Source of the DNA: a virus
Reading direction: 5' to 3' (one strand)
IMG/VR virus record: IMGVR_UViG_3300049020_000031
Coordinates: 32,001 to 96,000 of that record
DNA length: 64,000 bases
Shown one piece after another: positions 2,831 through 61,049 of this stretch (the first letter of the stretch is position 1; each line of letters opens with the position of its first letter). A program made the translations under genes and the position numbers. The notes beneath the pieces were generated by a model that was given only the letters and a program-made list of their open reading frames with translations, did no database searches and was not told where the DNA came from.

Positions 2831-3079
2831 TCATGGAAGAAATTTGTATGAAGTCATCGCCATTCTGAATCCATACACATCAGCCTCGTCGTACAAATAT
2901 ACTAGACTGAATGACATCCGCGCGAGTTGATGGTAAGAACCATCAGGAAGCCCATTCAAATATTCCGTGACTTCAGTTCCTGGGAACTGAATCATGAATA
3001 CCCCCGCTGGTTCCCTTTCATCCCCAGGAAACCGGTCTAATGGTTTCTTGGGTTTTATCAGGGCGAAATGGATCATCAA
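2831..3079 (-). CDS. small protein of the 'FKL-motif' paralog family
   Basis: C-terminal YLYDEADVYGFRMAM. Confidence 0.55.
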   Translation of the reverse strand: MMIHFALIKPKKPLDRFPGDEREPAGVFMIQFPGTEVTEYLNGLPDGSYHQLARMSFSLVYLYDEADVYGFRMAMTSYKFLP

Positions 3080-3465
3080 ATCTTCGAGATATCACCCAGA
3101 AGAGCTGGCAGTTCCTTTTCACCAAAGAAACTATGCAGAACTTCACTCATCTTGATGACCTTCTGAACAACCAGATAGGGCTCTTGACCCAGGATGTCTG
3201 GGATCTGGGTGGAATCAAGGAACGTGGCCAGTGGCATTTCAACATTGTACTTGTTGAGGGCACCGTTATTGTGTGAACCAGTAGCAGTCGATTTGGTAAC
3301 CGTACCAAACGAAAGTTTCACCAACGAACCAGTGACAATCATTTCGATTTCACGGTACACCTTGGCCGATGGATTCAGTGCCAGTTCTTTATCAGCACCG
3401 GGGGTTTTCACATACTTGACGAACTTGATTTCTGCGACGTTCAGGAGTTCTTCTACTTGGGACAT
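3076..3465 (-). CDS. hypothetical protein
   Basis: start refined to MSQVEE after an AAGGA RBS. Confidence 0.7.
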   Translation of the reverse strand: MSQVEELLNVAEIKFVKYVKTPGADKELALNPSAKVYREIEMIVTGSLVKLSFGTVTKSTATGSHNNGALNKYNVEMPLATFLDSTQIPDILGQEPYLVVQKVIKMSEVLHSFFGEKELPALLGDISKI

Positions 3466-3524
3466 CGTGGTTTCCTTAAAAGGGTTGTTGCGTTGACTCA
3501 ACTATAACACCAAATGAATAGAGA

Positions 3525-4862
3525 TCAACGTTTTTTCATTTGCTGTTCTGCCACACCGAACGCCGTATAGTCAAACTTTAGATCGACAGCTTGTTTTGAA
3601 TCAAGAGCATTTGTGACATCATAGATGAATCTAGATCTCATGGTGAGCATCAGGGAGTTGAGTTCGATTTCTTTAAATTCTGGCTCATGGGTCATCACAA
3701 CCAACAGATCACTATCGACCACACTGTCGTAAGGGTCGAAATATTCGATGCCACGACTATGGGTCATTTGAGCACCATTGGGATCGTAGTATCGAACTTC
3801 AAAATTTCTAGATGAAAACCATTGAGCAACTTTCATTGATGGTGACTCTCTGGTATCGGCAGAACCAGCTTTGAATCCCATCCCCCAGAAGGTAATGGTT
3901 TTGCCCTTGTTTCCGTTCTTCTCCAGAATCCGTTTCACTTCACTAATTATGTGATGTGCGGCATTGTTGTTGCTTGAAACTATTTGATTCACCATACTCT
4001 CATGCATTGCATTGTTGGCGATTTGTGACCCAAGGGCATGTACATCCTTGGGTAGACAATAACCACCAAAACCAGGACCATGTTTCAAATATTGATCTCC
4101 GATTCGTGGATCAATGGAAATTCCAGTCACGACATCACGAATGTCAGCATCGTAGTTTTCACACAGTTGTGCCAACTCATTCACCATAGCGATACGAGCT
4201 GCTAAAAAGGTGTTCGCAGCCAGCTTGGTTATGACAGCGGAATTGAAACTCATGGGGATGATTGGTGCCCCATTTGCCAGCACCTCGATGACATCGACTA
4301 CATGGGGTTCAAGTGAGTCAAGGGTGCTGGTGGTGGTCCCTACCACCAGCCTATGGGGATGGTTAGCATCATGTAGTGCCTTACCTTCCTGAAAGAATTC
4401 CGGGAGTACCACTAGGCTGGCGAATGTTTTCTCAGGCTCCTTTAGGATATTCTGAATCGTATCCACGGCCATGGTAGAACGAACGAATACATAATGTGGG
4501 GAAATTTCTGTTTCCTTGAGGCCATACCTACAGCTATTGAATACGGATGAGATGGCATAAGAATCAAGATGTGTGCGGACTGACTGTGGTGTACCAACAC
4601 AGATGAACACCAACATACTCTCGTCCATTTCTTCAGGCCAGAAATTATTTTTGTGATCTCTACAGATCTCCAGAGACCCGTCAGAGATAAGTTCTGAAAC
4701 CGCCTCCTTGACTCCAGGCTCATCGATGTGGCAGTCACCATTCAAGAGTTTGCTGATGACCGTTTTGTTCGTGTCAAACCCGATGACTTTGTATCCAGAT
4801 TTGGCGAGGGTGATAGCGGTCGCCAATCCTGAATAACCCAGACCAAACACAGCCGCTCTCAT
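3525..4862 (-). CDS. ugd: UDP-glucose/GDP-mannose 6-dehydrogenase
   Basis: GLGYSG Rossmann motif, ICVGTP, PEFFQEG, KLAANTFLA, catalytic GGYCLPKD, DTRESP. Confidence 0.9.
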   Translation of the reverse strand: MRAAVFGLGYSGLATAITLAKSGYKVIGFDTNKTVISKLLNGDCHIDEPGVKEAVSELISDGSLEICRDHKNNFWPEEMDESMLVFICVGTPQSVRTHLDSYAISSVFNSCRYGLKETEISPHYVFVRSTMAVDTIQNILKEPEKTFASLVVLPEFFQEGKALHDANHPHRLVVGTTTSTLDSLEPHVVDVIEVLANGAPIIPMSFNSAVITKLAANTFLAARIAMVNELAQLCENYDADIRDVVTGISIDPRIGDQYLKHGPGFGGYCLPKDVHALGSQIANNAMHESMVNQIVSSNNNAAHHIISEVKRILEKNGNKGKTITFWGMGFKAGSADTRESPSMKVAQWFSSRNFEVRYYDPNGAQMTHSRGIEYFDPYDSVVDSDLLVVMTHEPEFKEIELNSLMLTMRSRFIYDVTNALDSKQAVDLKFDYTAFGVAEQQMKKR

Positions 4863-5812
4863 TTATGATAGTCCTTATACCATTCCACGAAATTTTTCAA
4901 ACCTTCCGCCATCGAAGTTGTCTTGCAATAGCCGATTCTGGATTGTAACTTATCAACAGACGATCTGGTGATGGAAGATTCATATACTGGCAAATCTATT
5001 TCAATAATTTCTGGTTTCTTTCCCAGTATTTCACCAATCGTCATGATCATCGACTCGACGGAAATAGATCTGCCAGATCCCAGATTGTAGATTTCGTGCG
5101 TACCGGGAACTGCCTTATCCAAGATACCAACTACCATATCAACCAGATCATCCACATATGTGAAGTCCCGTCTAGTCATTATACCACGGAGTAGAACTGG
5201 CTTGTCTTCCATGATAGCCTTGGTGAATAGCCAATATGCCATATCAGGTCGCCCCCATGGTCCGTATGCTGTGAAAAACCGCATACCTACCATAGTCCCA
5301 CCATAACTTTGGTGATGCATGTCGGCCTGTTGTTCGTTCGTGAGTTTACTCAAAGCGTAATTGCTACTGGGGAAAGTTTGATCATGTTCTTTTACTGAGC
5401 TGGTACCCGCACCGTAAACACTTGAGCTACTGGCGTAGAAGATTCTTTCTACGCCATATTTCTGGCAGGCGTCAAGTACCGCTGCCGTCCCCACGACGTT
5501 TGTTTTATACGTTCTGGCTGGATCAACCATTGATGCCGTAACTCCAGGTTGAGCGGCTAGGTGAATTACGGTCTTGATATCGTTTTCCGAAAACAACCTA
5601 TTGAGGTAATCCTGATTCGTGATGTCAGCGTAGAAGAATTTTACCTTACCACCGGTCATCAAAGAATTGAGACGATCTCGTTTTAGCTGCGGTGCGTAAT
5701 AGTTGTTCAAACTATCGACAAGAACCAGGTCCTCACCCATTGCTAGAAGTCGCTCCGAGACTGCTCTACCGATGAAACCTGCCGCCCCAGTGATTAGAAT
5801 TTTACCGTTCAT
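4859..5812 (-). CDS. NAD-dependent epimerase, UDP-glucuronate 4-epimerase-like
   Basis: TGAAGFIG, HLAAQ, YASSSSVYG, YxxxK, RFFTAYGPWGRPDMA, RDFTYVDD. Confidence 0.88.
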   Translation of the reverse strand: MNGKILITGAAGFIGRAVSERLLAMGEDLVLVDSLNNYYAPQLKRDRLNSLMTGGKVKFFYADITNQDYLNRLFSENDIKTVIHLAAQPGVTASMVDPARTYKTNVVGTAAVLDACQKYGVERIFYASSSSVYGAGTSSVKEHDQTFPSSNYALSKLTNEQQADMHHQSYGGTMVGMRFFTAYGPWGRPDMAYWLFTKAIMEDKPVLLRGIMTRRDFTYVDDLVDMVVGILDKAVPGTHEIYNLGSGRSISVESMIMTIGEILGKKPEIIEIDLPVYESSITRSSVDKLQSRIGYCKTTSMAEGLKNFVEWYKDYHK

Positions 5813-5933
5813 TTTTATGCCATTAGTTACCTGGAATTGTACGTTTGGCGTCAATAAATCACAATAAACATCAGATATACCGGTTTAATCTTCGAGGAAA
5901 CTCCCGTAAATAAAGGAAACTTCATCGGGGATT

Positions 5934-6602: not shown

Positions 6603-6606
6603 AGAA

Positions 6607-6630
6607 ATAGGGGAGCAAACGCTCCCCTAT
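6607..6630. terminator. GGGGAGC-N4-GCTCCCC hairpin, copy 1 of 6
   Basis: inverted repeat between convergent genes. Confidence 0.75.
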
Positions 6631-6923
6631 CCCAATTTGGTCCCATAACCATCCCACCTTAGATAGAACGTCGTCGCATCTTCCTTGTGGTCGAAATAAA
6701 CGGTGTGGCTTGTGATTACATCATCATTGAACCAATAATTTGATGGCTTTTCAAAATCCCTACAAAGAACCGTGTCTAGATTATCTGATAAGAATTGTTC
6801 CAATTCTTTGCGATCTTCTTCGGTTGTTGGGACGGGGATGATGACGAGGAATTTGTCGTCAAGATGCTTATTTCGTGGTTGATATGAATAGCTGTTAGCC
6901 ACGATGCTCTTCCAGATTGCCAC
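6627..6923 (-). CDS. FKL-motif family protein
   Basis: YFDHKEDATTFYLRW. Confidence 0.65.
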   Translation of the reverse strand: MAIWKSIVANSYSYQPRNKHLDDKFLVIIPVPTTEEDRKELEQFLSDNLDTVLCRDFEKPSNYWFNDDVITSHTVYFDHKEDATTFYLRWDGYGTKLG

Positions 6924-6924
6924 T

Positions 6925-7230
6925 TCAAATATCCAGTGATAGTTTGAATCTCACTAGAGATTCAGCCCACATAAAATAGAAATCCGTGTAGCCTGCTGCG
7001 TTCTTGATCATTCTATAGGGTTTACACGTATCAAGGATTTCTTTGATTTCTGGCTTCAATACTGCCAATGAAGATGAGTAATGGGGGTTTATACTAGTGT
7101 GCAGACCCCAGATGTAGCCAAGTTCTGGTTCGAACAACCGATCGCGCTTTGGTTCATCAACTCGGATGTGAAACCCATCCCGGAAATTTCTCCGAAACTT
7201 CTTCTCTTGAAAATAGTGGCTAGTGGTCAT
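6925..7230 (-). CDS. FKL-motif family protein, probably leaderless
   Basis: FYFMWAESLVRFKLSL; TG-T-TACACT-6nt-ATG upstream. Confidence 0.65.
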   Translation of the reverse strand: MTTSHYFQEKKFRRNFRDGFHIRVDEPKRDRLFEPELGYIWGLHTSINPHYSSSLAVLKPEIKEILDTCKPYRMIKNAAGYTDFYFMWAESLVRFKLSLDI

Positions 7231-7245
7231 CTTGCCAGTGTAACA

Positions 7246-7605
7246 TCAATCTAATGATCCATTACCACCAAACATCAACTTAAACTTGATGGCATCTGAG
7301 GAATCCAGAAACCATATAGTCTTCGTCACATCAAGTCGAGTATTGGTGGTGTGGGAGTACCATCTGATGATTTTGAATGGTTGACATTCACTTAGGAAAA
7401 CTAACACGTCCTCGGAAAAATCAATGATCATCATCAATTCTTTCAACGAATAAGTTCGTATCCAGGTGATAGTTTTTGGAGGGAGTTCACTCCAATCACC
7501 GTTGAAATTGAACTTGTTCTCTTCAGTGATGTGAACGCATGATGCGCCAACCAGTTGTGGGCGAATAAGGAAAAGAACTTCTTTGCAGATACGAATAATA
7601 TTCAT
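7246..7605 (-). CDS. FKL-motif family protein, probably leaderless
   Basis: WFLDSSDAIKFKLMF; TG-C-TATCAT-6nt-ATG. Confidence 0.65.
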   Translation of the reverse strand: MNIIRICKEVLFLIRPQLVGASCVHITEENKFNFNGDWSELPPKTITWIRTYSLKELMMIIDFSEDVLVFLSECQPFKIIRWYSHTTNTRLDVTKTIWFLDSSDAIKFKLMFGGNGSLD

Positions 7606-7635
7606 ATGTGCATGATAGCACCATTCCAAATAGGA

Positions 7636-7790: not shown

Positions 7791-7796
7791 TATTTA

Positions 7797-8213
7797 TTAT
7801 CCAATGTAGGTAATCTTGTCATAAACCGGCCCCTTGTCGTCACCACTGAATGCCAATTTGAAACAGATCAGATCATGCATTGAGATGAAATACAATGGAT
7901 AGACAATTGCGAAGCAATCCCTTGCGTGGCCGGATATCTTAATTTCTTCAGAGGACGAAGGCTTGACATCATACTGTTTTCCCATCTCATATCCCTGACA
8001 AGACTCAAGGAAATCATGTATTTCTGGTTTCCATCCATACTCCAATCCATATTCCAAATTCATACCGTTATGATATGAATTGAAAACTCGGTTGCCATTC
8101 TGATAATTGATGTAGTCGTGTTGATAGATGGGATAAAGATGACCAAACACTCTGGGAAGAAGGCGAAACAACCGTAGATGAATAGCTGCCTTGATCTCTA
8201 GGAATGTTTTCAT
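7797..8213 (-). CDS. FKL-motif family protein, probably leaderless
   Basis: YFISMHDLICFKLAF; TG-C-TATCAT-7nt-ATG. Confidence 0.65.
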   Translation of the reverse strand: MKTFLEIKAAIHLRLFRLLPRVFGHLYPIYQHDYINYQNGNRVFNSYHNGMNLEYGLEYGWKPEIHDFLESCQGYEMGKQYDVKPSSSEEIKISGHARDCFAIVYPLYFISMHDLICFKLAFSGDDKGPVYDKITYIG

Positions 8214-8278
8214 GTTTGGTATGATAGCATCATCGTGAAAAAGCCACTATTTTGTAGTGGCTTTTGTGGGGAACTTAT

Positions 8279-8665
8279 TTAATAAGGATCGTATGAATCA
8301 CGATCATCATATTGATCAGACTTGGAATCTGCATCTTCCCAAGCCTTCTCACCCAATTGATTCATCACCGCTGGGGGAACTGCATCCGTGATGTCTTCAC
8401 CAGTGGAAAGACGGAAGACTGAAAGGCTTTCCAGTTCCGGATATTCCGCTGGGTGACTGTCACCCGGATCTGCGGTAATCTTTGCTGGGCGATACTTTCC
8501 AGATATGGAATAGTTGATGCCCACATCAAACTCTTCCTCATAATCAGGATCATTGCCCGGATCTTTGAATGGGTTATCGATTGTCCAGTTAAAGTCGTAA
8601 CGTGCTGGAGCTTCAGAAAGACCTTGAATAAGGTCCATGCTTTCTCTTAGGGAAATTCTTTTCAT
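8279..8665 (-). CDS. acidic hypothetical protein, possible capsid-internal protein
   Basis: N-terminus MKRISLRES...LSEA; last gene of a late operon. Confidence 0.6.
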   Translation of the reverse strand: MKRISLRESMDLIQGLSEAPARYDFNWTIDNPFKDPGNDPDYEEEFDVGINYSISGKYRPAKITADPGDSHPAEYPELESLSVFRLSTGEDITDAVPPAVMNQLGEKAWEDADSKSDQYDDRDSYDPY

Positions 8666-9387
8666 TATGATACCGCAATGTTGAGGCCTGGTTCGCCCAT
8701 ACTAACACGTTCGCTCTTGTCGCCCACGATGCTATCGAAGACCAGTTTGAATGTGAGATGACCGTAATCACGATCATGGCTCAGATAATCCAAAGTGTAG
8801 CGACCGTTAGGTTGGAGACCCAAGTCTTGGATTTGTTTCCCCGTCAGAGAGGAACTATAGAGAGTGGTGGCCTTACCATCTTCACCTTCAGTGCTTCCAC
8901 CCATTCTGCGATGGAGCTTGGTGAATTGATCGGGACCAGTGCCGTAAACTTCGCCACCGAATGCATCCAAGTATTCAGCACCACAAAGAATCAACACTAC
9001 TTCACCACCCCTGCGAGTGATACGAACACCAGTCACACCGTGACTGAATTCGCTGTTGTCCTTGATGATCTGATTAGTGAATGCTGCATTGTAGTCGATA
9101 GTGGCCTTGCTTGCGCCTAGGGCTCTTTTATCGTGCTCCATGTGCTTATCAATCTGCGTTTGCACATTCCTAACTGCTTCATCAGCAGTTGTGCCCTGGC
9201 CAATTGGTGCATTGGGGTTACGGGGATGTGAACCCATAGCCTTGAATGTCTTCCCATCAACCTCTGGCTTCAGCTTTGCTTTGATGGTCCAAGCGCCGTA
9301 CTTTACTTCCTTGATTGGAATTTCAGGCTTTTTCTTTGGGGCTTCTTTGATTGCTCTAGGAGCATCAAACAATTCAAATAGTTTCAT
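8665..9387 (-). CDS. hypothetical protein, possible capsid-internal protein
   Basis: N-terminus MKLFELFDA...IKEA. Confidence 0.65.
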   Translation of the reverse strand: MKLFELFDAPRAIKEAPKKKPEIPIKEVKYGAWTIKAKLKPEVDGKTFKAMGSHPRNPNAPIGQGTTADEAVRNVQTQIDKHMEHDKRALGASKATIDYNAAFTNQIIKDNSEFSHGVTGVRITRRGGEVVLILCGAEYLDAFGGEVYGTGPDQFTKLHRRMGGSTEGEDGKATTLYSSSLTGKQIQDLGLQPNGRYTLDYLSHDRDYGHLTFKLVFDSIVGDKSERVSMGEPGLNIAVS

Positions 9388-9402
9388 TATCCCGGCTCCT
9401 TA

Positions 9403-10803: not shown

Positions 10804-10853
10804 ATAGGATCCTTGAAATTTCGACTGGCAAAACACTTCCAGTTAACTCGTGT

Positions 10854-19336: not shown

Positions 19337-19364
19337 ATTATAGTTCATTTGGCTAAAATGTCAA
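19337..19364 (-). promoter_or_regulatory. sigma70-type promoter with CAAATGAAC motif
   Basis: TTGACA-TTTTAGCCAAATGAAC-TATAAT. Confidence 0.8.
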
Positions 19365-19760
19365 CTGTTCCTTGGATTCATCTTGTGACGGATAGCGGGC
19401 ATATCCAAGGTTGCATTCATCCCAAGTCAACTTGGACAACGCGATGTCTTGATTTCGTTTGAAGAGGATCGAACACCCATCCGACCAACCAAGATAAACG
19501 AGCATCTGAATATCGTTCAGAAACACCCACTCTAGGTATTCCTCCCCAGGCATGAGAAGATTATGAATCTCACTCAGTGTTAATGTGATGCCGTATTCTT
19601 TCAACCTCTTGTGAAATTTCGGATTGTTGGGGATGGGTTGGCACAGGTTAGGTCTCATGAAACATCCCCAACTCCCTGGATAACTTTGCGGATCGCCTTT
19701 GGTAAACAGGATATCCGGATCGTCTATTACCATCTGGGTGTAGGGCCCAATTACAGTCAT
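19353..19760 (-). CDS. FKL-motif family protein
   Basis: LFKRNQDIALSKLTW. Confidence 0.55.
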   Translation of the reverse strand: MTVIGPYTQMVIDDPDILFTKGDPQSYPGSWGCFMRPNLCQPIPNNPKFHKRLKEYGITLTLSEIHNLLMPGEEYLEWVFLNDIQMLVYLGWSDGCSILFKRNQDIALSKLTWDECNLGYARYPSQDESKEQLTF

Positions 19761-19978
19761 GTCCAAGTTCTCGCGATGTCGACCAATCGATCTTCTTCCC
19801 CTAGGTAGAACTTACCATAGAAGTGAGGTTCTCCACCATATTGAGGAACTTCGTAGAGTTCGTAACCATCAGATATTCGATGAACTTCTCCACCGCCTTC
19901 TTCTGACCAGAAAACAGTCGTGGTTTCACCAAACAACAAATCCTTGACTGCTTGGATATCTTGATCTCGAGTTCTCAC
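19757..19978 (-). CDS. hypothetical protein
   Basis: GTG start with AAGGA RBS. Confidence 0.6.
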   Translation of the reverse strand: MRTRDQDIQAVKDLLFGETTTVFWSEEGGGEVHRISDGYELYEVPQYGGEPHFYGKFYLGEEDRLVDIARTWT

Positions 19979-38837: not shown

Positions 38838-38925
38838 AACGATCCTCAAAATACCATGATGTGATGGCATCATCTTTTAGTCAAATAAATGGCGGATCCA
38901 TACCAAATGAATGTATAATGATGTG

Positions 38926-39198
38926 ATGATAACAATCCTGAAGTCACAAACATTCCAAGAATTCATGGAAGAATACCGGGGCACGCAAGTTGCCTGGAGG
39001 TGGTCAACCATTGATGACTTCGACAAACGTGACCCAGAGTTTGTCCTCATGCTATCTGATGACAAGTTTGATTACAATTATCCCCATGTGGACTATTCAG
39101 GGAAAGTGATTGATATGCACTACACCGCTTCCACTTGGTTTTGCATATTCGAATTTGAATCCGACGCAGTCATGTTCACCCTGTTACTTGATCGATAA
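38926..39198 (+). CDS. FKL-motif family protein, probably leaderless
   Basis: IFEFESDAVMFTLLL; TATAAT-6nt-ATG. Confidence 0.65.
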   Translation: MITILKSQTFQEFMEEYRGTQVAWRWSTIDDFDKRDPEFVLMLSDDKFDYNYPHVDYSGKVIDMHYTASTWFCIFEFESDAVMFTLLLDR

Positions 39199-39841: not shown

Positions 39842-40258
39842 ATGGCTGCTACTGTACAAATTCTGAAGGTTGGTCACGCTCTGGTGCAAGGTGCACGTGG
39901 TGAAAAGGGCGGCGCCCCAAGCAAGGACAGCCTGTTTGGTGTTGCTCAAATCACGCAAGGTGTGGTGAGCTCGCTGGTTACTTTCGGTGGTCGTCGTGGT
40001 GGCTTCCTGCGCTTCAAGACCTACCCCAAGGCTTCCGCTGATGCAGTGATGGCCAAGTTTGACGCAAAGCTGGTGAAGGCACAAGGTGGCTTCAACTACA
40101 CGGACGTGACAGCAAACGCTGCTGAACTCCTGGGTGCAGACTTCGCTGACAAGCTGCTGGTGAACTTCCGCGCTGCAAGCAATGCCAAGAAGGTCAACAC
40201 TCGCGCAACGGCCAAGAAGGCAAAGGTCGGCACGACCCGCGCAAACACTGGTCTGTGA
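39842..40258 (+). CDS. basic, Ala/Lys-rich early protein
   Basis: TTGACT-17nt-TATAGT promoter, AGGAG RBS, strongly biased codons. Confidence 0.75.
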   Translation: MAATVQILKVGHALVQGARGEKGGAPSKDSLFGVAQITQGVVSSLVTFGGRRGGFLRFKTYPKASADAVMAKFDAKLVKAQGGFNYTDVTANAAELLGADFADKLLVNFRAASNAKKVNTRATAKKAKVGTTRANTGL

Positions 40259-41161: not shown

Positions 41162-41467
41162 TCACAAGTTTGCGGTTTCTACAATCCAATGAACTTGATC
41201 TGAAAACAACAACTTGAATTCTATCATCGCATATTCGTCATGAAAATCTACCTGCATATAGAATTTCGACCATTCAGAATACATTAGGTTTGATTTGATA
41301 ATCGCTTTTCTCAAGAGATCCTCGGTATCACCCAACGCCCATTCCTGCATCGCCTGTTTGGCTTCTGCGATGGAAATGTGTGTTTTGAGTCTGACGGTGG
41401 TTTTGATCATATAACTGAAGGGGGCCAAGGCCCCCTCATTCCGGTAATAGTTGATTACTTCAACCAC
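41162..41467 (-). CDS. FKL-motif family protein
   Basis: DFHDEYAMIEFKLLF. Confidence 0.6.
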   Translation of the reverse strand: MVEVINYYRNEGALAPFSYMIKTTVRLKTHISIAEAKQAMQEWALGDTEDLLRKAIIKSNLMYSEWSKFYMQVDFHDEYAMIEFKLLFSDQVHWIVETANL

Positions 41468-42126: not shown

Positions 42127-42480
42127 ATGAAGACCATCGCGGGTGCATCATTTGTATGGATAACCGCCATGGTGTTTGCCAGTATGGTATTCCTCATCCT
42201 AGATGAAGCCAGTGGCAAGACAACCAAGGTCATCCGCCAAGTTAAAGTGATTTCAGCAACAGTTGACTCCAAATCAAACAAGGTGAAGATGCAACTGGAG
42301 AACACCGTCGGTGAAAAGTGGTGGCATGTATCCGATATTGCATTTAGTGATTGTCCCTTCATGGAATATCACAAATTCAAGAACGTGTACATCACCACCA
42401 ACGTCACCTACTTCTTACGGTATCAAAGGTACGGTGTGGAAGGGGTGGTTACTTTTTGCCACAAGGCAAAACACTCTTGA
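42127..42480 (+). CDS. membrane-anchored hypothetical protein
   Basis: N-terminal TM; start uncertain (42106 or 42127). Confidence 0.5.
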   Translation: MKTIAGASFVWITAMVFASMVFLILDEASGKTTKVIRQVKVISATVDSKSNKVKMQLENTVGEKWWHVSDIAFSDCPFMEYHKFKNVYITTNVTYFLRYQRYGVEGVVTFCHKAKHS

Positions 42481-42724
42481 ACTGAGCTGATGCACTATTG
42501 ATTACAATGCTTCTGGTGAGGGAAGGCCAGAGCATTTTGAACATGACCATCGCTGAATCATTGGGGGCGATGAAAATAATACCCATTTGAATTCTGGCGC
42601 AACAGTCACTATACCCTGATAGTGTTGCCCATTCCATAACCTCTGAGTACTTGTCAGGGGGTATGAAATAGGCCACATATGTGGTTTGATTGTTATCCGA
42701 AGATGCCAATTTGATTCCATTCAA
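42449..42724 (-). CDS. FKL-motif family protein
   Basis: APNDSAMVMFKMLW. Confidence 0.55.
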   Translation of the reverse strand: MNGIKLASSDNNQTTYVAYFIPPDKYSEVMEWATLSGYSDCCARIQMGIIFIAPNDSAMVMFKMLWPSLTRSIVINSASAQFKSVLPCGKK

Positions 42725-44315
42725 CTGGAGTTGGGTCTACCTTGATTTCCTTGGGAATCTTCTTTCTTGAGCGAGCATCCAGGATATCACTCAGATCTTC
42801 CAGGGAAATCGTGGGCTTCTCGAAGAATTCAAAGAACATTGATTCACCCGGACGTTCTCCTGAAATCAGATCGCTGTACTTTGATGCTTCTTGTTCAACC
42901 AGCTTCAAAGACTTTGCCGTGTAATCATCCTTCTCGGCATCACTCAGTGAGTCCCAAGCCTTACCGTCAGTGTAGAACAGACGGTTCACAAAGTCCTTGA
43001 ATTCCAGGAAAATAGAGGGAATGTGATCGGCGGCATCTGGGGCGAACAACTTGTCGCACACGTATTCAACCGCATGGGCTTGCATCTCAACGTTATGCGC
43101 CATGATGTAGTAATAGGACGCGGTATCCATTCTGTACGCCTTCTTGGTTTTACCCTCGATAGGAGCCAGGATGAAGTCACTCATCTTCAACTTTGCGCTG
43201 ACATTACTCTTCTTGTGGTTTGGATCAGCCATTCTCTCAGAGCTCACACCATTGTAAAGGAAGGGCAGTGCACCGTGGGCTACTTGATTGCCATTCTCAT
43301 CCTCGGTCAACACACCGTCAATATACCGAGCGTCCATGGGAAATTCTGCGCTGATGAGGTTCAGACCTTTGGGACTCACCGCGTAGTCGGTCACATAGTT
43401 GCCATTGACTGCATAGAGGAACGCACTCGAGGCATCGTATGAAATCTGAATGCCGTCATTGAGGTTTCTGCTCAATGATTCGTTCAGGGCTGCCAAGTAT
43501 GCTGCGGTACTAAGACGTGAGCGACCCAAAACGTGGATCCAACGGTCTGGACCACTCAAGTAACCATCACGTCGTAGACGCACCAGAAGACGCATGGTTA
43601 GACTTGGATCACCACCTGTAGCGCCGCCTAATGCCCAACCCTCAAAGGCTCTTTCGCCGTGGATATCAGTGTTGCTGAAAGGAGTCACAGCATCATACCA
43701 TTCATCCGCTTCTTTGTCTGAGCGACCTTGCAGAACATTCAGGAATTTGGTTTTGCCTGGAGTTCTGTTGTTGATAAAGAAGTGATTGTTCCAAACTGTA
43801 CCCTTAAGACAGTTCTGGAACTCATCAGTACTTGGAGTCAGGGGATCAGTAGTTGGATCGAAATGCATCAGCGTGGCTGGAAGCCTGCCAGTGTCGATAG
43901 CCCAAGCTGGCCAATCAAGTACCATGCTGTAATCAGCGGTATGTTCCAACCATCTCATCAATTCAAGTCGTTGATTAATCGACTTCTCGCTGAGCGGATT
44001 CTTCCAGTCAAAGTCCAGGACACCAGTAGCTGCCTGGAACCCACCAGAGTCACCAATAAGCACCGAGTTTGATCTGTTTCTACCCTGAATCATTGGTTCA
44101 CGTTCGTCGCTCTTTTGTGGATCCAGGTGGGCATGGCCTGCTGAATACAGGTTGGCAGGCCACGTGAAGTGATTCTTGTTCACATCGTCCATGAAATTCA
44201 GTAGGTCAAAATCTACTGGTTGACGTGGCCACTTCTTTGCGTGGGCCAACACGAACATTTGACTCACCGAAGGGGTAAAAAAAGCGTATCGTTTGGGGTG
44301 TAAAATCTGTGCCAT
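42693..44315 (-). CDS. tRNA-guanine transglycosylase (TGT)/DpdA-like TIM-barrel enzyme
   Basis: GDSGGFQ, MVLDWP, LNVLQG, GWALGG, IHVLG, ISYDASS, AHN. Confidence 0.75.
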   Translation of the reverse strand: MAQILHPKRYAFFTPSVSQMFVLAHAKKWPRQPVDFDLLNFMDDVNKNHFTWPANLYSAGHAHLDPQKSDEREPMIQGRNRSNSVLIGDSGGFQAATGVLDFDWKNPLSEKSINQRLELMRWLEHTADYSMVLDWPAWAIDTGRLPATLMHFDPTTDPLTPSTDEFQNCLKGTVWNNHFFINNRTPGKTKFLNVLQGRSDKEADEWYDAVTPFSNTDIHGERAFEGWALGGATGGDPSLTMRLLVRLRRDGYLSGPDRWIHVLGRSRLSTAAYLAALNESLSRNLNDGIQISYDASSAFLYAVNGNYVTDYAVSPKGLNLISAEFPMDARYIDGVLTEDENGNQVAHGALPFLYNGVSSERMADPNHKKSNVSAKLKMSDFILAPIEGKTKKAYRMDTASYYYIMAHNVEMQAHAVEYVCDKLFAPDAADHIPSIFLEFKDFVNRLFYTDGKAWDSLSDAEKDDYTAKSLKLVEQEASKYSDLISGERPGESMFFEFFEKPTISLEDLSDILDARSRKKIPKEIKVDPTPVEWNQIGIFG

Positions 44316-44316
44316 A

Positions 44317-44997
44317 TTATTCTTTTTCTTTTTCTGTTGATTGTAAATGGGCAAGCTTCTTGAGCTCCCAAGTTCTCTTTCTAGATTCAGCTATTTTAGC
44401 TCTAGTTTCAGGAGATTGCGATTTTCCCAGCATTCCACTTGGCTTTCCTCTGTTGGCTTCCGCCCCCTTAGGGTTTGGTTTCCCTCTGCGAGTCGCAGCA
44501 CTTTTTTCCACGGCTTCTCTAGACATGGGAACTCCGACCCTTCTTGCCGCCGCTGCGTGATTGGAAGCCAAAGCTTCAGGAGAAAGTTTCCTTCCTTTCA
44601 TCCGAGCAGATTTTGCAGCAACCACTTCTGGCGATTGTTTCTTTCCTTTGTGAGGGCTAGGGTTTCCCTTCATACGAATAGAAGCTTCACGCGCAACTTC
44701 TCTTCTTATCCATCCAAACATTTTCAATTTTGATGCTCTTCGCCCCACTGAACTATTTAGGTTAGACATGGCGGCACACGCCATCACCAATCTATGGTAA
44801 TACTGGGTACCTTTATGTATTTTTACCAACAATTGGTGACACAAATAATGTTCCTCGGGGGTGAGTCGAACTAAATTTTCAATGTCATCAGTGCCACCCA
44901 TACATCTTGGAATTATGTGATGCTTCTCGGAATAGCTATCCAGAAGTCGAGATTTTGCTCGATGAATAATTCGATCGTATATTTCTTGATAGTTCAC
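44317..44997 (-). mobile_element. free-standing HNH homing endonuclease with NUMOD3 repeats
   Basis: EKHHIIPRCMGG...NLVRLT.EEHYLCHQLL; repeated KGKKQSPE, KGRKLSPE, GKSQSPETRAKI. Confidence 0.85.
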
Positions 44998-50503: not shown

Positions 50504-51760
50504 TTAAAGAGCGATTGTTTTAATTGCATCGCCATAGATGACTGTTGGCTCTTCATCATTGGCAAATGTTTCCTTGGTCACGATAACCTTCGTTGCACCG
50601 GCTTCACGGTAGTCAATAAGGTTGAACTGCGTTTTGATCAATTTGTTTTCGATCACGCTACGAAGTCCCCGAGCGCCTGTTTTACGGTCTTTGGCGATTC
50701 TTGCGACTTCTTCCAAGGCGCCATCTTCAAATACCAGTTCCACTCCTTCAATTGAGAAGAGCTTCACGAATTGCTTTATAACTGCATTCTTTGGTTCTGT
50801 CAACACACGCACTAGTTGAGCTGCTGTAAGTTCTTCCAATGGTGCAGATACGGGCAAACGACCAATAAGTTCCGGGATGATACCAAATTGGATCAAGTGT
50901 TCAGGTTTGGCATGACGAAGCAAATCATCAATCGGCTTTGACTTGTCCATGACCTTGGAATTGAATCCCAAGCCCGCGTCTTTATTCAAACTCTTCTCAA
51001 CAACTTTGTCGAGGCCCACGAATGCACCACCAACGATGAACAGAATATTACGAGTATTGATTTTCACCAGATCAGCCTGTGGGCTCTTTTTCCCGCCAGC
51101 TGATGGAACCATGATGTCCGAGCCTTCGAGAATTTTCAACAGAGCTTGTTGAACGCCTTCACCAGACACGTCCTTGTTACCACCGCCACCCTCTTTCTTC
51201 TGCTTCTTGTCGATTTCATCCAGATAGATGATACCGCGTTCTGCCTTGGAAACATCACCACCAGCATTTTGGAGCAGTTTTGATACGATGCTTTCAACGT
51301 CATCGCCAACATATCCAGCTTCAGTCAATGAAGTGGCATCAGCAATTACGAATGGAACATCCAGATATCTGGCGATCGTTTGGGCGATGAGAGTTTTGCC
51401 ACTACCCGTGGGGCCGAAAATCAGAATGTTACTCTTCTCGATTTCAACTCCATCTACAACTGGATGGGCCAGTCTCTTGTAGTGATTGCTTACTGCGACG
51501 CTGACTACCATCTTGGTATAGTCTTGGCCGATAATGTATTGGTCTAGAAATTCTTTGATTTTTGTAGGATTGGGAATTGCTTCGTGTTCTTGAGGTTCTT
51601 CTTGTGGCTTATCCAAAGGAGATTCTGTGGACAAGATTGAGTGACACAAGCCCACACACTCATCACAAATGTAGACATTTGGACCAGCGATGAGCTTCTT
51701 AACTTCATTTGCACTTTTGCTGCAAAAGGAGCAATAAAGTTTCTTTTCTGTTTCTGACAT
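50504..51760 (-). CDS. clpX: ClpX AAA+ unfoldase
   Basis: CSFC...CDEC zinc domain, GPTGSGKT, TEAGYVG, DEIDK, DVSGEGVQQALLK, GARGLR. Confidence 0.95.
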   Translation of the reverse strand: MSETEKKLYCSFCSKSANEVKKLIAGPNVYICDECVGLCHSILSTESPLDKPQEEPQEHEAIPNPTKIKEFLDQYIIGQDYTKMVVSVAVSNHYKRLAHPVVDGVEIEKSNILIFGPTGSGKTLIAQTIARYLDVPFVIADATSLTEAGYVGDDVESIVSKLLQNAGGDVSKAERGIIYLDEIDKKQKKEGGGGNKDVSGEGVQQALLKILEGSDIMVPSAGGKKSPQADLVKINTRNILFIVGGAFVGLDKVVEKSLNKDAGLGFNSKVMDKSKPIDDLLRHAKPEHLIQFGIIPELIGRLPVSAPLEELTAAQLVRVLTEPKNAVIKQFVKLFSIEGVELVFEDGALEEVARIAKDRKTGARGLRSVIENKLIKTQFNLIDYREAGATKVIVTKETFANDEEPTVIYGDAIKTIAL

Positions 51761-56379: not shown

Positions 56380-56431
56380 TTGATAGACCACATCAATCAA
56401 CTATAATGAACCATTCAACAACAATAAGAAA

Positions 56432-57793
56432 ATGGCAAAATCAAAAAAGCAACCACTAACCAGTGACTATATCAAGGATTCGTCCAGAGAGTACAGCATT
56501 TATGTCTGCGAAAACCGGGCGATCCCCAAAGTAGCAGATGGCATGAAAGATGGTCCACGTAAAGCAATGTGGCTCATGAAATCTCGAGCAGACAAGATCA
56601 AGACTGTATCACTTGCGGGTGAAATGATTTCCAGCGGCTTGTATCTGCACGGTGATCAATCTGCTGGTGACAGCATCTCCATGTTGGCAGCACCATATGT
56701 TAACAACGTTCCTCTTCTAGAGGGTATCGGTTCTTTTGGAACTCGAGTTGCACCTGTGGAAGGTATTGGTGCCCCGCGTTACACATACGTGAAAAAGGGC
56801 AGAGCGGCGGAACTTCTGTTGTTCCAAGATCTCGATATCGTACCACTCAAGGATAATTATGACGGATCAAACAAGGAACCAATTCACTTCCTGCCACTGG
56901 TTCCATTGGTTCTCCTGAATGGTATCTCGGGAATCGCAGTTGGTTGGTCTACTTCTATTCTCCCCAGAAACCTGAAGAAGATCATCACTGCTACTCAGCA
57001 AGTTCTTGCTGGCGAAGAGCCGAAGGGTTTGGAGCCATCATTCGATTACCTGAACGTCAAGGTAAAGAAGCTCGAGGAAAATAGTTGGGAATTCCGTGGT
57101 AGATGCGAAATCCTGGACACCAGTACGGTAAAGATTACCGAATTGCCACCAGGAACCAATTTGCAATCTATGAAGAAGAGATTGAACAAGATGGAAGAAG
57201 ATGGCTTGATTCAAACTTACACGGATCGAAGCACTGACACCATCGCCATCACGGTGAAATTCAAGCGCGGTGAAGTCTCGGGATGGACAGAAGACAAAGC
57301 GATTGATTTTTTCAAGTTGAAGGAAAAGTCAAACGAGCGTATCGTAGTTGTTGACTGGAACAGTTCAAGCATTCGTCAATACGGTAGCCCGGAAGAAGTC
57401 GTAAAGGACTTCGTTCAATGGCGTCTGGGTTGGTATACTCTTCGCTTCCAAAAGAAGCTCGACGATGACAGCTATGAACTCAAGTATTGGCAAGGTATCA
57501 AGGCTTGCTTTGATGACAAGCTTCCAGAGCGCTTGGGTAAGAAGGCAGACAAGGCTGATGTGGAGTCCGAAGTAGCTAACATCACGTCAGCCGTGGGGCT
57601 GGATCAAAGCCAAATCGACAAGATTGTCAGCTTGCCAACATACCGTTGGGCAAAGGACTTTCTTGCTACTGTGAAAGAAAACATCGCCAGATTGCAAGCC
57701 AATATCAAGGATCACAAAGCAATGTTGAAGAGCCCTAGTGCAATCAAGGACGTCTACATGACAGAGTTGGAAGAGTTGAAGAAGCTCAAGTGA
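56432..57793 (+). CDS. type II DNA topoisomerase, cleavage subunit (T4 gp52-like)
   Basis: RAIP...DGMK, YLHGD, catalytic APRY, NG..GIAVGWST, ITELP; own promoter TTGATA-16-TATAAT. Confidence 0.93.
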   Translation: MAKSKKQPLTSDYIKDSSREYSIYVCENRAIPKVADGMKDGPRKAMWLMKSRADKIKTVSLAGEMISSGLYLHGDQSAGDSISMLAAPYVNNVPLLEGIGSFGTRVAPVEGIGAPRYTYVKKGRAAELLLFQDLDIVPLKDNYDGSNKEPIHFLPLVPLVLLNGISGIAVGWSTSILPRNLKKIITATQQVLAGEEPKGLEPSFDYLNVKVKKLEENSWEFRGRCEILDTSTVKITELPPGTNLQSMKKRLNKMEEDGLIQTYTDRSTDTIAITVKFKRGEVSGWTEDKAIDFFKLKEKSNERIVVVDWNSSSIRQYGSPEEVVKDFVQWRLGWYTLRFQKKLDDDSYELKYWQGIKACFDDKLPERLGKKADKADVESEVANITSAVGLDQSQIDKIVSLPTYRWAKDFLATVKENIARLQANIKDHKAMLKSPSAIKDVYMTELEELKKLK

Positions 57794-57819
57794 ATTTAAA
57801 TTCACCCTCTAGATGTTAA

Positions 57820-57851
57820 AATGAAAGCAGGTGAATTCACCTGCTTTCATT
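57820..57851. terminator. 32-bp perfect palindrome, probable terminator
   Basis: AATGAAAGCAGGTGAATTCACCTGCTTTCATT. Confidence 0.6.
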
Positions 57852-57871
57852 ATTTTCTAAAGGATTTCCAT

Positions 57872-58078
57872 ATGAGCAAATATGTTCAAGGAGTTATTTT
57901 CAGTTTCGATACTGAAGAAAAGCTGGCCCACTTTAAATCCGGGGATGAAGTTTTCGTTGTAGGGCCATTCAGTAATTTCGCAGAAGGATCATCTTTTAAG
58001 AAACTTCAAGTCGGTTCCAATATCAAAGCCGAAATTACTAGAGCTCCTACGAAATTAGTGAGTATTGAAATCACATAG
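57872..58078 (+). CDS. small hypothetical protein
   Basis: AAGGA RBS. Confidence 0.55.
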   Translation: MSKYVQGVIFSFDTEEKLAHFKSGDEVFVVGPFSNFAEGSSFKKLQVGSNIKAEITRAPTKLVSIEIT

Positions 58079-58079
58079 G

Positions 58080-58105
58080 AAAAGGGGAGCAACAGCTCCC
58101 CTTTT
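58080..58105. terminator. GGGGAGC hairpin, copy 4
   Basis: AAAAGGGGAGC-AACA-GCTCCCCTTTT. Confidence 0.8.
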
Positions 58106-58395
58106 CACCAAATCTTTGCAACGTCACCGTGTTGGAACACTTGCACGGTCGTTCCACGATCCACGAAATAACGCCAGTTGGATTCCGATTCCGCGGCTTC
58201 TAGGTTGCGATCCCACACTGCCTTGGCGACAACATCATACATGTCCAATGGGGCTACGGCAATTACTTCTGCTTGATCAATGTGTTGACCAGCTTGCCTG
58301 CGGAAGACCTTAACTGAAGCATTGAACATTAGTGTTTCCTTGTTAATGTGTGCATCAAGTATAACACAAGATTCATCTGTGGATGAACTTTTCAA
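58105..58395 (-). CDS. hypothetical protein (true start may be ~58329)
   Basis: AAGGA RBS before MFNASV. Confidence 0.5.
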   Translation of the reverse strand: MKSSSTDESCVILDAHINKETLMFNASVKVFRRQAGQHIDQAEVIAVAPLDMYDVVAKAVWDRNLEAAESESNWRYFVDRGTTVQVFQHGDVAKIW

Positions 58396-58637
58396 TCCGT
58401 CAGCAGAAATTCTTTTATATTATTTTCAGCCATATAAGCAAGAAACACTTCGCACACTTCTGGGCTCCAACCATAAGCTGAATCTGGTCGTTCGCATGAA
58501 CCGCGATCAACCTCAACATGGTGACTTTCGTAGAACGGAATGATGCGATCTTTTTGCAGTTTGTCGATGAATGAGTTGTAATCACCACCGCGCGATGCTG
58601 CAAAGACTGCAATCGAGCTATATGAAATGTGCGTCAT
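58392..58637 (-). CDS. hypothetical protein
   Basis: ORF. Confidence 0.5.
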   Translation of the reverse strand: MTHISYSSIAVFAASRGGDYNSFIDKLQKDRIIPFYESHHVEVDRGSCERPDSAYGWSPEVCEVFLAYMAENNIKEFLLTD

Positions 58638-58711
58638 GAAATGAATGAATCTAGTTGTAGGTCATGCCATTCTAACGCCTTGTTGTAAATACTGTACGGG
58701 GAGGACATGCC

Positions 58712-59023
58712 GTGCATAATTTCTTCATAGCTCGATTTGGTATCGTGATTAGACAAGACATCGATTACATGTTCTATCAGGAATTGGTTGATGATCCACC
58801 CAAAGCACTGATGAAAGAGATGGAACCAGATGTCTATTCATGGCTTCTGGAGACGCAACCATCCACACAATTTGGAGTATCTGCCATACTCCTTGATCCC
58901 TACAGCATACTGACGCTGTCCTTTAGTGACGAAACAGATCTCGCGATGTACAGATTAACATTCGCCGACGTGTTTGTGAATCCTAGCAGAATCCCCAAGA
59001 ACATAATTGATCGGTACTTCTAA
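58712..59023 (+). CDS. FKL-motif family protein
   Basis: SFSDETDLAMYRLTF. Confidence 0.65.
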   Translation: MHNFFIARFGIVIRQDIDYMFYQELVDDPPKALMKEMEPDVYSWLLETQPSTQFGVSAILLDPYSILTLSFSDETDLAMYRLTFADVFVNPSRIPKNIIDRYF

Positions 59024-59053
59024 TTCACCTAGAGTTCATGCTAGAATGAACTT

Positions 59054-59449
59054 ATGGCAACCACACGACTTTTAATTGATGACGCTCTGATAGTCGTCAT
59101 CTTCCCGGAAACCCCGGCGTTTAATCAATGGATGATGCCCAATTACCAAAGCCTAGTACGAACTTGGACGTATGGAATTGAGGGCAAACCGTGGGTTAAT
59201 GAACAAGGGTATCGGAACCCAGTCACCATATTGGTGAATTGGGCTGATGGGGCGGATCGTTTGAATCTTCATGTTGCCAGCTATCCATATGGAGATACCA
59301 AGAACTTCGTTCATTCTAGTGAATTTGAATTTTTGAAATCCTCTTTTGACGGTGTGACAATGCGTGGGCGTGATCATGTGATCTTCAATGATCCCCAGGA
59401 TGTAATTATGTTCCGTCTTCGATACGGCGATTCCATTAAGGCAATATGA
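59054..59449 (+). CDS. FKL-motif family protein, probably leaderless
   Basis: IFNDPQDVIMFRLRY; TG-C-TAGAAT-6nt-ATG. Confidence 0.7.
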   Translation: MATTRLLIDDALIVVIFPETPAFNQWMMPNYQSLVRTWTYGIEGKPWVNEQGYRNPVTILVNWADGADRLNLHVASYPYGDTKNFVHSSEFEFLKSSFDGVTMRGRDHVIFNDPQDVIMFRLRYGDSIKAI

Positions 59450-59688
59450 AGAACGAAATCTTAGTGAGTTTGATTCATCCATCGGTGGCGGTAGCGGTAG
59501 CACCAAACCCTGACCCAACTCCGAACTCACTAGTGGTTCTGGTTGCCAATCCAACCTCGGCGTTTACCAAATGGGCTTCTGAAAGAAGCATCACCAGATA
59601 TAAATTCAAGATGGCCAATTGGCAAGAAGTCTCGATAGAATTCCTTGATGTCGAAGATCTAATTCAATTCAAGTTATTTTGGTCGTGA
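59446..59688 (+). CDS. FKL-motif family protein
   Basis: EFLDVEDLIQFKLFWS. Confidence 0.7.
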   Translation: MKNEILVSLIHPSVAVAVAPNPDPTPNSLVVLVANPTSAFTKWASERSITRYKFKMANWQEVSIEFLDVEDLIQFKLFWS

Positions 59689-59717
59689 AAAAAGGGGAGC
59701 AACAGCTCCCCTTTTTT
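59688..59717. terminator. GGGGAGC hairpin, copy 5
   Basis: core identical to copy 4. Confidence 0.8.
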
Positions 59718-59735
59718 CATCTGTCTACCTACCAA

Positions 59736-60038
59736 TTACGCGGGGGCCACAGTGGACCAGTACACCACACCAGCGTAGTTGTCACTGGCAATACGGATGT
59801 AGATATCCTTGTTCAACACGTCCTTGGTGTAGCGGCGAATGCGGCCGCCCAGATCGATGTTTTGTGCAGACGTGAGTCGCACTTGCTGCAGAGGAGCCCC
59901 GAAATCCACCACAACCACGGCGGTTGGATGCTCGCGTCCGTTAACATGAATGGTTGCCTTATTGGGCAGATTCAGGGAGTCCAGAAAGTCTTCCAGATCA
60001 ATACGGGATGCGGGCACGTTTGTGTTGGTCTTTGCCAT
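59736..60038 (-). CDS. hypothetical protein
   Basis: start refined to MAKTNT; biased codons. Confidence 0.65.
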   Translation of the reverse strand: MAKTNTNVPASRIDLEDFLDSLNLPNKATIHVNGREHPTAVVVVDFGAPLQQVRLTSAQNIDLGGRIRRYTKDVLNKDIYIRIASDNYAGVVYWSTVAPA

Positions 60039-60222
60039 TTTATTTTCTTTTTCTAACCACCGTCTTAATGAATCCGGGGATAACAAAGACGGGAATGTTA
60101 TCACTGGAGTAAGCAAGCTATCTTGCCACACCGCTATGATACATAATGGCAACAGGTAGGCAATAACTTTGTGGAAATATTTCACGCATTGACGATAATT
60201 TTCTTTTTCATATAATGAACCT

Positions 60223-60783
60223 ATGGAATACACATGGAAGAAACGAACTCTAATCGCTATTCGTTCATTACTGGATGAAGACGACATGACTCGTGCCAAT
60301 GTGGTGAAGCGGGCTCTTTATTTCAACAAGTACAGGATTGCCGTACACCTATCAGCAACGCCTCAATCATGGCCGGACTTCTCAGATATCGTCCGTGATC
60401 TGGAACACGCCTTGGTGGGGCTGGATTGCAAGCTGGTGAGTGTTTTACCAGCAATGTATACCAACCTCTACTGTAGTGATCCCAAGATATTGGATGAAAT
60501 TACCAATATGGAGCACCTGTTGGATATTCACAGCATTGATGTCGTGAGACCTGAGTGTTGGGGTCTTTCACCCAAACCCAGGAACAAGGGAAAGTTCTAT
60601 CACCAATATGGTTACAGAATCAAGATAGATGGTATGGGTTGGGATCATCCATTCCGTGATCTGATGGTTGGTACCTGGTATCAACATGGTTCATTCCTCT
60701 ACTGTACGGATAGTCGAGATGTGGTTATGATTCGACTACTCTACGGCGGAAAGATTCAACAAATCACCGAGAGACAATTATGA
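60223..60783 (+). CDS. FKL-motif family protein, probably leaderless
   Basis: LYCTDSRDVVMIRLLY; TATAAT-6nt-ATG. Confidence 0.65.
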   Translation: MEYTWKKRTLIAIRSLLDEDDMTRANVVKRALYFNKYRIAVHLSATPQSWPDFSDIVRDLEHALVGLDCKLVSVLPAMYTNLYCSDPKILDEITNMEHLLDIHSIDVVRPECWGLSPKPRNKGKFYHQYGYRIKIDGMGWDHPFRDLMVGTWYQHGSFLYCTDSRDVVMIRLLYGGKIQQITERQL

Positions 60784-61049
60784 ATTGGGCTAAGGAATTC
60801 CCTCATGGTTGCTGCTTTCGGATTCCCGCAAGTTCTGATCCCGCTGAAGCATATCATTATGTGAATGACTTGTTGATTACTCGCTATGGCGAAACTGTCA
60901 ATGGTGATAACAATCCGGATTGCAGGTGGTTGATGACCGCTTCAAGTATTTCACTTGATTATATTGCACATTTGAGATTCAAGCATTTGGAAGATGCAAT
61001 TGACTTTAGGCTGACATGCCAATATAGCGTCGATAATCCGTATCAGTGA
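60780..61049 (+). CDS. FKL-motif family protein
   Basis: RFKHLEDAIDFRLT. Confidence 0.7.
   Translation: MNWAKEFPHGCCFRIPASSDPAEAYHYVNDLLITRYGETVNGDNNPDCRWLMTASSISLDYIAHLRFKHLEDAIDFRLTCQYSVDNPYQ

Follow-up and report, generated by a model that had tools for sequence, protein, structure and literature searches.

A close described parallel to the genes reported here is found in Bacillus phage G, where about 35 zinc-ribbon copies represent a lineage-specific expansion of a small protein (Iyer et al. 2021, PMC7824862). We analyzed a 64,000-nucleotide stretch of viral DNA, referred to throughout as the window (bases 32001-96000 of the 141.5-kb single-contig virus record IMGVR_UViG_3300049020_000031), in which dispersed small open reading frames (ORFs) end in a shared domain of about 55 residues. 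As for the phage G zinc ribbons, one genome carries many very divergent copies of one small domain, often arranged head to tail, whereas the fold and the sequence family are different. Like other expanded small proteins of jumbo phages, the family shows many divergent copies with tandem runs in one genome. True members also occur among the uncharacterized proteins of Agrobacterium phage Atu_ph07, Sinorhizobium phage Phosso and Pseudomonas phage PA5oct (e.g., A0A2L0UZT1; EST35_0247, 0274, 0275), all of which are hypothetical proteins by annotation.

Two described structural classes resemble the domain in outline. The RRM/ferredoxin sandwich (Pes4 RRM4, 6exx; UPF3 RRM, 1uw4) has the same β-α-β-β-α order, and the RNP1-helix 2 junction of RRMs is similar in sequence type to strand 3 and helix 2 of the domain (h-F-x-F-x-x-x-E-D-A-x-x-F). 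In contrast to RRMs, the domain has no fourth strand in its predicted structure, no RNP1/RNP2 aromatic surface and no Pfam RRM match; the proteins are acidic, and the similarity scores remain in the range of common folds. PII-like and ACT domains (SbtB, 8zor; TyrA ACT, 5v0s) are top Foldseek and VIA-align neighbors, with a query-normalized template-modeling (TM) score of 0.74 and a Z of 6.8. They differ from the domain in length (70-110 versus 55 residues), in their T-loop/ligand motif, which the domain lacks, and in the absence of any sequence relationship; the structural matches reach E ≥0.2 and Z 5.6-6.8.

The original prediction, made from the letters alone, held that these ORFs share a C-terminal motif, F.D..D...F[KR]L.[WF], and quoted peptides from 15 clear cases. 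All quoted peptides are found at the ends of the named ORFs, with each quoted coordinate being the lower coordinate of its ORF (38926 refers to ORF 38911-39198 (+)). The strict motif occurs twice in the six-frame translation versus 0 times in 100 codon shuffles, and a loosened motif gives 8 matches versus a shuffle mean of 0.04. A 24-column hidden Markov model (HMM) built from the 15 seeds recovers six non-seed ORFs elsewhere in the record at 11.0-17.3 bits, where reversed ORFs reach at most 7.1 bits and five shuffles per ORF at most 10.6. All matches to this model lie at the ORF C-terminus. Leave-one-out analysis returns 12 of the 15 seeds at 6.1-23.4 bits, while 6925, 19353 and 2831 fail.

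Models built exclusively from external sequences recover the same kind of signal. With 144 domains taken only from metagenomic proteins, 21 ORFs of the record score at least 11.4 bits against a control maximum of 7.9. Enlarging this set to 207 with sequences of Phosso, Atu_ph07 and two metagenomic loci, none of them from the record, yields 22 ORFs at 11.3 bits or more, above all controls, including the best of 5,210 shuffled ORFs at 8.1 bits. A six-frame profile search of the whole record with an independent tool gives 23 matches. At the level of sequence, the copies are confirmed as one real paralogous family with a shared C-terminal motif, as had been proposed. The HMM search suggested at that time, covering the genome and related phages, recovers members above shuffled controls and finds matches in Phosso, Atu_ph07 and PA5oct.

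Inspection of the window reveals 11 sure and 3-4 possible family genes, and the 141.5-kb record holds at least 23 copies in about seven clusters plus singles. About one in ten genes of this phage fragment encodes the small domain. The candidates are given below, with lengths in amino acids (aa); bits refer to the 207-sequence model unless another profile is named, and A2 is a profile of 103 sequences that was also used for the counts in cultured phages.

2831-3079 (-): doubtful candidate, 82 aa; no HMM score; sole support z 6.3 to genome member g31107.
6627-6923 (-): robust member, 98 aa, last of the tandem run from 8213 to 6627; 35.8 bits, leave-one-out 10.3.
6925-7230 (-): probable divergent member, 101 aa, in tandem between two members; 5.8 bits, fails leave-one-out.
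7246-7629 (-): robust member, 127 aa (119 aa from an internal ATG, as in P0010); 24.9 bits, leave-one-out 14.6.
7797-8213 (-): robust member, 138 aa, first of the tandem run; 13.2 bits, E 5.9e-6 with A2.
19353-19766 (-): borderline candidate, 137 aa; 8.9 bits versus a control maximum of 8.1, fails leave-one-out.
28134-28745 (-): robust two-domain member, 203 aa, last of the operon from 30552 to 28134; 47.4 and 11.7 bits with the 144-domain HMM.
38911-39198 (+): robust member, 95 aa; 14.2 bits, 16.3 with the 144-domain HMM.
41162-41467 (-): robust member, 101 aa; 13.8 bits, E 4.5e-8 with A2.
42449-42724 (-): robust member, 91 aa, after the 553-aa ORF 42693-44354; 11.8 bits, E 7.2e-7 with A2.
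58712-59023 (+): robust member, 103 aa (84 aa in the database gene call, P0005); 17.8 bits.
59054-59449 (+): robust member, 131 aa; 20.4 bits, leave-one-out 23.4, the best of all.
59446-59688 (+): robust member, 80 aa, domain reaching the last residue; 24.7 bits.
60223-60783 (+): probable divergent member, 186 aa; 3.3 bits, leave-one-out 9.8.
60780-61049 (+): robust member, 89 aa, followed by a terminator at 61056-61083; 12.0 bits, 16.2 with the 144-domain HMM.

Among the 15 ORFs presented as clear, 11 are therefore robust (11.8-46.9 bits versus a shuffle best of 8.1), 6925 and 60223 are probable, 19353 is borderline and 2831 is doubtful. For 6925, the helix-1 region (KPEIxxxLxxCxxYxMxK) aligns with that of its neighbor 7797 at a Smith-Waterman z of 5.4, a score reached in 0 of 200 shuffles. 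The C-terminal 19 residues of 60223 likewise align with ORF 59054 at z 5.4. The five matches described as weaker (32090, 32667, 38356, 55628 and 55945) find no support, with scores of 3.9 bits or less. Still, 55628 and 55945 may be extremely diverged members, because three of the four small ORFs at the same position in Phosso, between its two topoisomerase genes, belong to the family. Beyond the window, three members start within about 1 kb of its right end. A 263-aa protein at record 97022-97813 (-), equivalent to window coordinates 65022-65813 and hence past the window end, carries the small domain at its C-terminus together with a weak DUF7695 match (E 0.0055) in its N-terminal/middle part. 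DUF7695 was rejected as the identity of the small domain, since this match falls outside the domain; a strong DUF7695 gene is also present within the family array of metagenomic locus L007.

Alignment of the 58-residue C-terminal segments shows that conservation is wider than the motif. First comes an amphipathic helix upstream of the motif, in which Trp is nearly invariant (consensus E-I-x-x-W-C/L-x-x-N); then follow a strand with an invariant aromatic, a second strand ending in Phe and D-A-h-h-F-K-L-R/T-W; external matches have the consensus EIxxWCxxNCxGxY...FxFxNExDAvxFKLRWG. Across the 144 external domains, conservation is highest, in sequence order, for W (99%), C/L (89%), N (72%), the aromatic (98%), F (99%), D (94%), A (88%), F (99%), K (80%), L (96%) and W/F (96%). 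The only conserved charged residues of the helix are K (80%) and R (56%). The invariant F, A, F, L and W alternate in the manner of a hydrophobic core, and the family alignment contains no conserved stretch of 7-10 columns. From this spacing, rather than from coordinates, we infer that the conserved positions are mainly core residues and a helix cap. No catalytic signature was found in the domain. The median isoelectric point (pI) is 5.3 for members in this genome and 5.2 for external members, versus 6.15 for other small ORFs.

Structure prediction with AlphaFold2, using an alignment of 24 paralogues from this genome, returned a compact domain with a mean predicted local distance difference test (pLDDT) score of 84 and no residue below 70. 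The model comprises strands at 2-6, 24-30 and 35-41 and helices at 7-20 and 45-55, that is to say, a β-α-β-β-α arrangement. In this model of a self-contained domain of about 55 residues, the motif covers the last part of strand 3, helix 2 and, between them, a turn whose Asp caps the helix; the predicted fold is ferredoxin/RRM-like without the fourth strand. The motif had been thought of as a separate docking element; its core-type spacing within a domain that includes the upstream helix and aromatic strand speaks otherwise.

Structural comparisons place the model in a crowded class. Foldseek searches against PDB and BFVD gave nothing at E ≤1e-3, with best values of 0.23-1.3 for PII-like/ACT proteins. 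VIA-align returned Z scores of 5.5-7.5 for RRM, ACT, PII-like, EF-G, KH, secretin N-domain, V-ATPase and designed ferredoxin structures and none at Z ≥8. Pes4 RRM4 (Z 7.2, root-mean-square deviation (rmsd) 1.8, 58 aligned residues) is tied with ACT, V-ATPase and EF-G matches, where Z <8 represents typical background. A profile search of PDB sequences gave β3-α2 of the UPF3 RRM as its best match, with an E of 0.17 that is not significant, and nothing lower. The fold check proposed for the family thus yields a confident AlphaFold2 model without a significant Foldseek neighbor, and the comparison with an RRM/ferredoxin strand-helix holds for the shape, given the predicted topology and the RRM, ACT and PII-like neighbors, but fails for membership in the RRM family as judged by profile match, fourth strand and conserved RNP surface, all three of which are lacking.

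ORF 28134 carries the domain twice, as was originally noticed, and aligns lengthwise with eight external tandem-domain proteins. For its residues 80-203, AlphaFold2 predicts two β-α-β-β-α units at pLDDT 72. VIA-align of this tandem model found no match at Z ≥8 and no solved structure matching both domains together. Tandem two-domain forms account for 10 of 135 external proteins.

The family is widespread in uncultured phages. Searched against 1.84 billion cluster representatives, a paralogue profile (A1) matches 207 proteins at E ≤1e-3; nearly all of them are 57-150 aa long with the domain at the very end, and the ten that were looked up are metagenomic and without a name. The two metagenomic contexts inspected consist of many small genes in a row, all without annotation: on a 549-kb contig, 11 copies fall within 20 kb, and the second locus has 9 genes (10 domains) in 12.8 kb. 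The back-translated pattern E-x-D-A-x-x-F-K-L-R-W locates 101 stretches in IMG/VR, with at least 12 carrier contigs above 250 kb. The IMG/VR figures given here and below derive from 80 of these 101 loci (713 kb), where the HMM confirms 78 of 80 and identifies 344 domains. Two or more copies are present in 68 of the 80 loci, with up to 18 in 8.5 kb, and in 93% of cases the domain ends no more than 5 residues before the stop codon. About 42% of members have 10 or fewer residues before the domain and 17% have at least 40 extra N-terminal residues. The variable N-termini had been viewed as specificity regions; these parts do vary, but many members have no such region, because so large a fraction begins almost directly with the domain.

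In cultured phages, profile A2 has 56 matches in Phosso, 7 in Atu_ph07 and 5 each in PA5oct and Cassandra, and none in T4, P-SSM2, RaK2, CcrColossus or phiM12. Our assumption that the motif is one known from cyanophages is not borne out for P-SSM2. Simpler searches detect little of the family. Single members used as megablast and tblastn queries had no match in 50,697 phage records; a 42-residue consensus matched Phosso, Atu_ph07 and PA5oct-type phages alone, at E 0.07-0.7, and a word-indexed protein search gave only 35 candidates. No model in Pfam, PHROGs or NCBIfam matches the domain. A full-text literature search for 'FKLRW' returned only unrelated papers, and the family is not mentioned in the jumbo-phage comparative review (PMC7824862) or in the Atu_ph07 and AP-J-162 genome papers. 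Every context inspected is phage-like, and the closest ESM Atlas clusters consist of unnamed viral proteins (94-100% viral); the distribution is phage-only as far as sampled. With the family defined, the dozens of domain genes annotated 'hypothetical' in Phosso, Atu_ph07 and PA5oct gain a name, boundaries and a predicted fold, which covers a sizeable share of jumbo-phage 'dark matter' and makes the function testable in cultured phage-host pairs.

Members from uncultured phages also include fusions to capsid-protein segments. Pfam Gp23 matches two of the eight longest forms above the cut-off (29.3 and 30.1 bits versus 24.4). Five proteins from different uncultured-phage contigs place a segment like residues 89-119 of T4 gp23 (...RRxIPxxIAxxIxGVQPM...) ahead of the domain:

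L067, 3271-3837 (-): GVQPM-segment fusion.
L033, 3153-3629 (+): GVQPM-segment fusion.
L054, 5348-5713 (-): GVQPM-segment fusion.
L094, 11977-12372 (-): GVQPM-segment fusion.
Protein P0052: GVQPM-segment fusion.

We take this segment to be the Gol region, which presumably binds EF-Tu and activates the Lit protease. No such fusion is present in any ORF of the 141.5-kb record. A different, C-terminal gp23 fragment is found in L060 at 3105-3593 (+).

How might so many copies of one domain be used? We favor, as a proposition with an even chance of being correct, a diversified set of small intracellular binders on a stable scaffold, because the invariant residues appear to form the core, whereas the surfaces and N-terminal extensions seem free to vary. 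The domain would supply the scaffold and perhaps self-association, the latter suggested by the recurrence of tandem two-domain forms. Members would then act as small non-enzymatic binders in the infected cell, serving as decoys, in counter-defence or in host take-over. The original prediction of an adaptor or counter-defence role is a reasonable conjecture. Several observations weigh against a set of diversified binders. The conserved K/R on helix 2, together with the almost fully hydrophobic circumference of this helix, could mark a common interface. The fold carries no functional information, because the ferredoxin-like arrangement is very common. Sigma-70-like sites are no more frequent in the sequence than in shuffles and allow no conclusion on timing, and the PA5oct members fall outside the terminal-repeat block called early in the PA5oct study. 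Host-directed binders or decoys, if that is what the copies are, would amount to a large and so far untapped source of small modulators of bacterial proteins.

An adaptor library is an unlikely alternative. Here the constant C-terminal domain would dock one shared partner, such as the ClpX encoded by the phage at 50504-51760, and the variable N-termini would bring cargo or baits. The strictly C-terminal position of the domain fits this proposal, as do the K and R conserved on an otherwise all-round hydrophobic helix 2, the presence of ClpX genes in this phage, Atu_ph07 and Phosso, and the fusions that place a known, Gol-region-like interaction peptide before the constant domain. However, the conserved positions are mostly core-like, and the 42% of IMG/VR members with at most 10 residues before the domain would have no variable part to present. 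Residues past the final W also vary, and several members in this genome extend 10-23 residues further (23 between domain end and stop in ORF 42449), which is unlike a terminal degron.

The same fusions count in favor of the binder reading, since they fit a peptide-presenting or decoy use. In its general form, this would make the domain a 'handle' that presents variable peptides, including the most conserved segment of the phages' own capsid protein, with the arrays serving as decoy or inhibitor libraries against phage-sensing host systems; we consider so broad a role rather improbable.

It is very unlikely that the copies are RRM-like regulators that bind different RNA or DNA sites in the manner of T4 RegA. 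The fold class and a top neighbor such as Pes4 RRM4 (58 residues at Z 7.2 and rmsd 1.8) point in this direction, along with the UPF3 RRM as the best PDB sequence match (E 0.17) and the Lys/Arg/Pro-rich tail that record ORF 29272-29772 shares with its Atu_ph07 orthologue. Against this, members are acidic, and the model lacks a fourth strand, for which there is no space because 93% of domains stop within 5 residues past helix 2. The strand-3 position expected to face solvent, judging from strand alternation and not coordinates, is variable (Y 26%, W 12%, E 11%). Pfam scans of about 150 members (10 window members, 10 external, 28 full-length members of this genome and the 103 A2 sequences) gave no RRM or other match.

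That the proteins assist capsid assembly by interacting with the major capsid protein is highly doubtful. Such a role would account for the uncultured-phage members fused to gp23-type fragments (two above the Pfam cut-off, five with GVQPM), but the 141.5-kb record has no fusion, its copies lie among metabolic and replication genes away from the structural module, and the PA5oct members are not flagged as virion proteins, with no virion mass-spectrometry note where neighboring genes have one. Finally, the view that there is no family, and that a short hydrophobic strand-helix pattern recurs by chance or convergence, agrees with member-to-member BLASTP being marginal and limited to about 20 residues, yet it keeps next to no probability, having already been refuted by the reversed and shuffled controls, by conservation that extends to the upstream helix and strand, by the confident fold prediction from paralogues alone and by the recovery of members with a model lacking any sequence from this genome.

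Conservation of individual members between phages is uneven. ORF 113831-114103 of the record, outside the window, has orthologues in Phosso (1e-20) and Atu_ph07 (7e-17). A sister metagenomic contig (73% DNA identity) has kept this ORF; 31 of the codon changes are synonymous and 14 non-synonymous, and the C-terminal half is unchanged, a pattern that indicates purifying selection on the orthologue. Also outside the window, ORF 29272-29772 (-) has an Atu_ph07 orthologue (51% identity, 4e-46); a 70-residue Lys/Arg/Pro/Ala-rich tail follows its domain, and the Atu_ph07 protein is also basic-tailed. No member within the window has a match better than E of about 1e-5 in the regions of Phosso and Atu_ph07 compared, which cover part of Phosso only, such that some orthologues may be missed.

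The arrangement of the copies agrees with its first description, as they lie on both strands, in tandem clusters and as the last gene of unrelated operons (28134, 42449). The minus-strand run from 8213 to 6627 has a 161-nt gap within it and ends at a strong hairpin-T tract at 6633-6604. The plus-strand run comprises 58712-59688 and 60223-61049 and ends at a hairpin-T tract at 61056-61083. On the opposite strand, a plausible gene of about 100 aa at 59736-60038 (-) divides this cluster into two transcription units. Rfam has no match in 57500-61500. A near-consensus sigma-70-like site, TTGACG-16-TATAAT (11/12), occupies 60189-60216, 6 nt before the ATG of 60223; the mRNA of this gene may be leaderless, because this spacing leaves no space for a ribosome-binding site.

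The record itself is linear by IMG/VR class, with a completeness of 33% as estimated by CheckV. The large subunit of its topoisomerase II shares 60% identity with the counterpart in Sinorhizobium phage Phosso (469 kb) and 55% with the one in Agrobacterium phage Atu_ph07 (490 kb). In the window, Atu_ph07 and Phosso alike, the gene order runs from ClpX through small ORFs to the topoisomerase large subunit and through further small ORFs to topoisomerase IV subunit A. Judged by these identities and this shared gene order, the window is a piece of a partial jumbo-phage genome of the Atu_ph07/Phosso group. Accessory and nucleic-acid-metabolism genes of the window include those for a UDP-glucose dehydrogenase, an epimerase, a GNAT acetyltransferase, an RNA ligase and a CCA/poly(A) polymerase-type enzyme; an R2K ATP-grasp protein, ClpX, topoisomerase II and an arginase-family protein are encoded as well. 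The ClpX gene (50504-51760 (-)) specifies a zinc finger and an AAA+ domain and stands beside topoisomerase genes also in Atu_ph07 and Phosso; no ClpP was seen in the window.

Other genes show duplication of their own. Three paralogues of 390-430 aa at 29314-30552, 33581-34750 and 35589-36872 (all -) match one another in BLASTP at 1e-45 to 7e-73, and the two that were scanned, 29314 and 33581, have no Pfam match. Window ORF 39842-40258 (+) and record ORF 8607-8966 (+) are 71% identical over about 100 residues, a recent duplication that does not belong to the small-domain family. The sole gp23-type capsid gene of the record, at 115128-116249 (+) outside the window, encodes 373 aa; its Pfam Gp23 match starts at profile position 129, and the gene is without the GVQPM segment that other phages fuse to the small domain.

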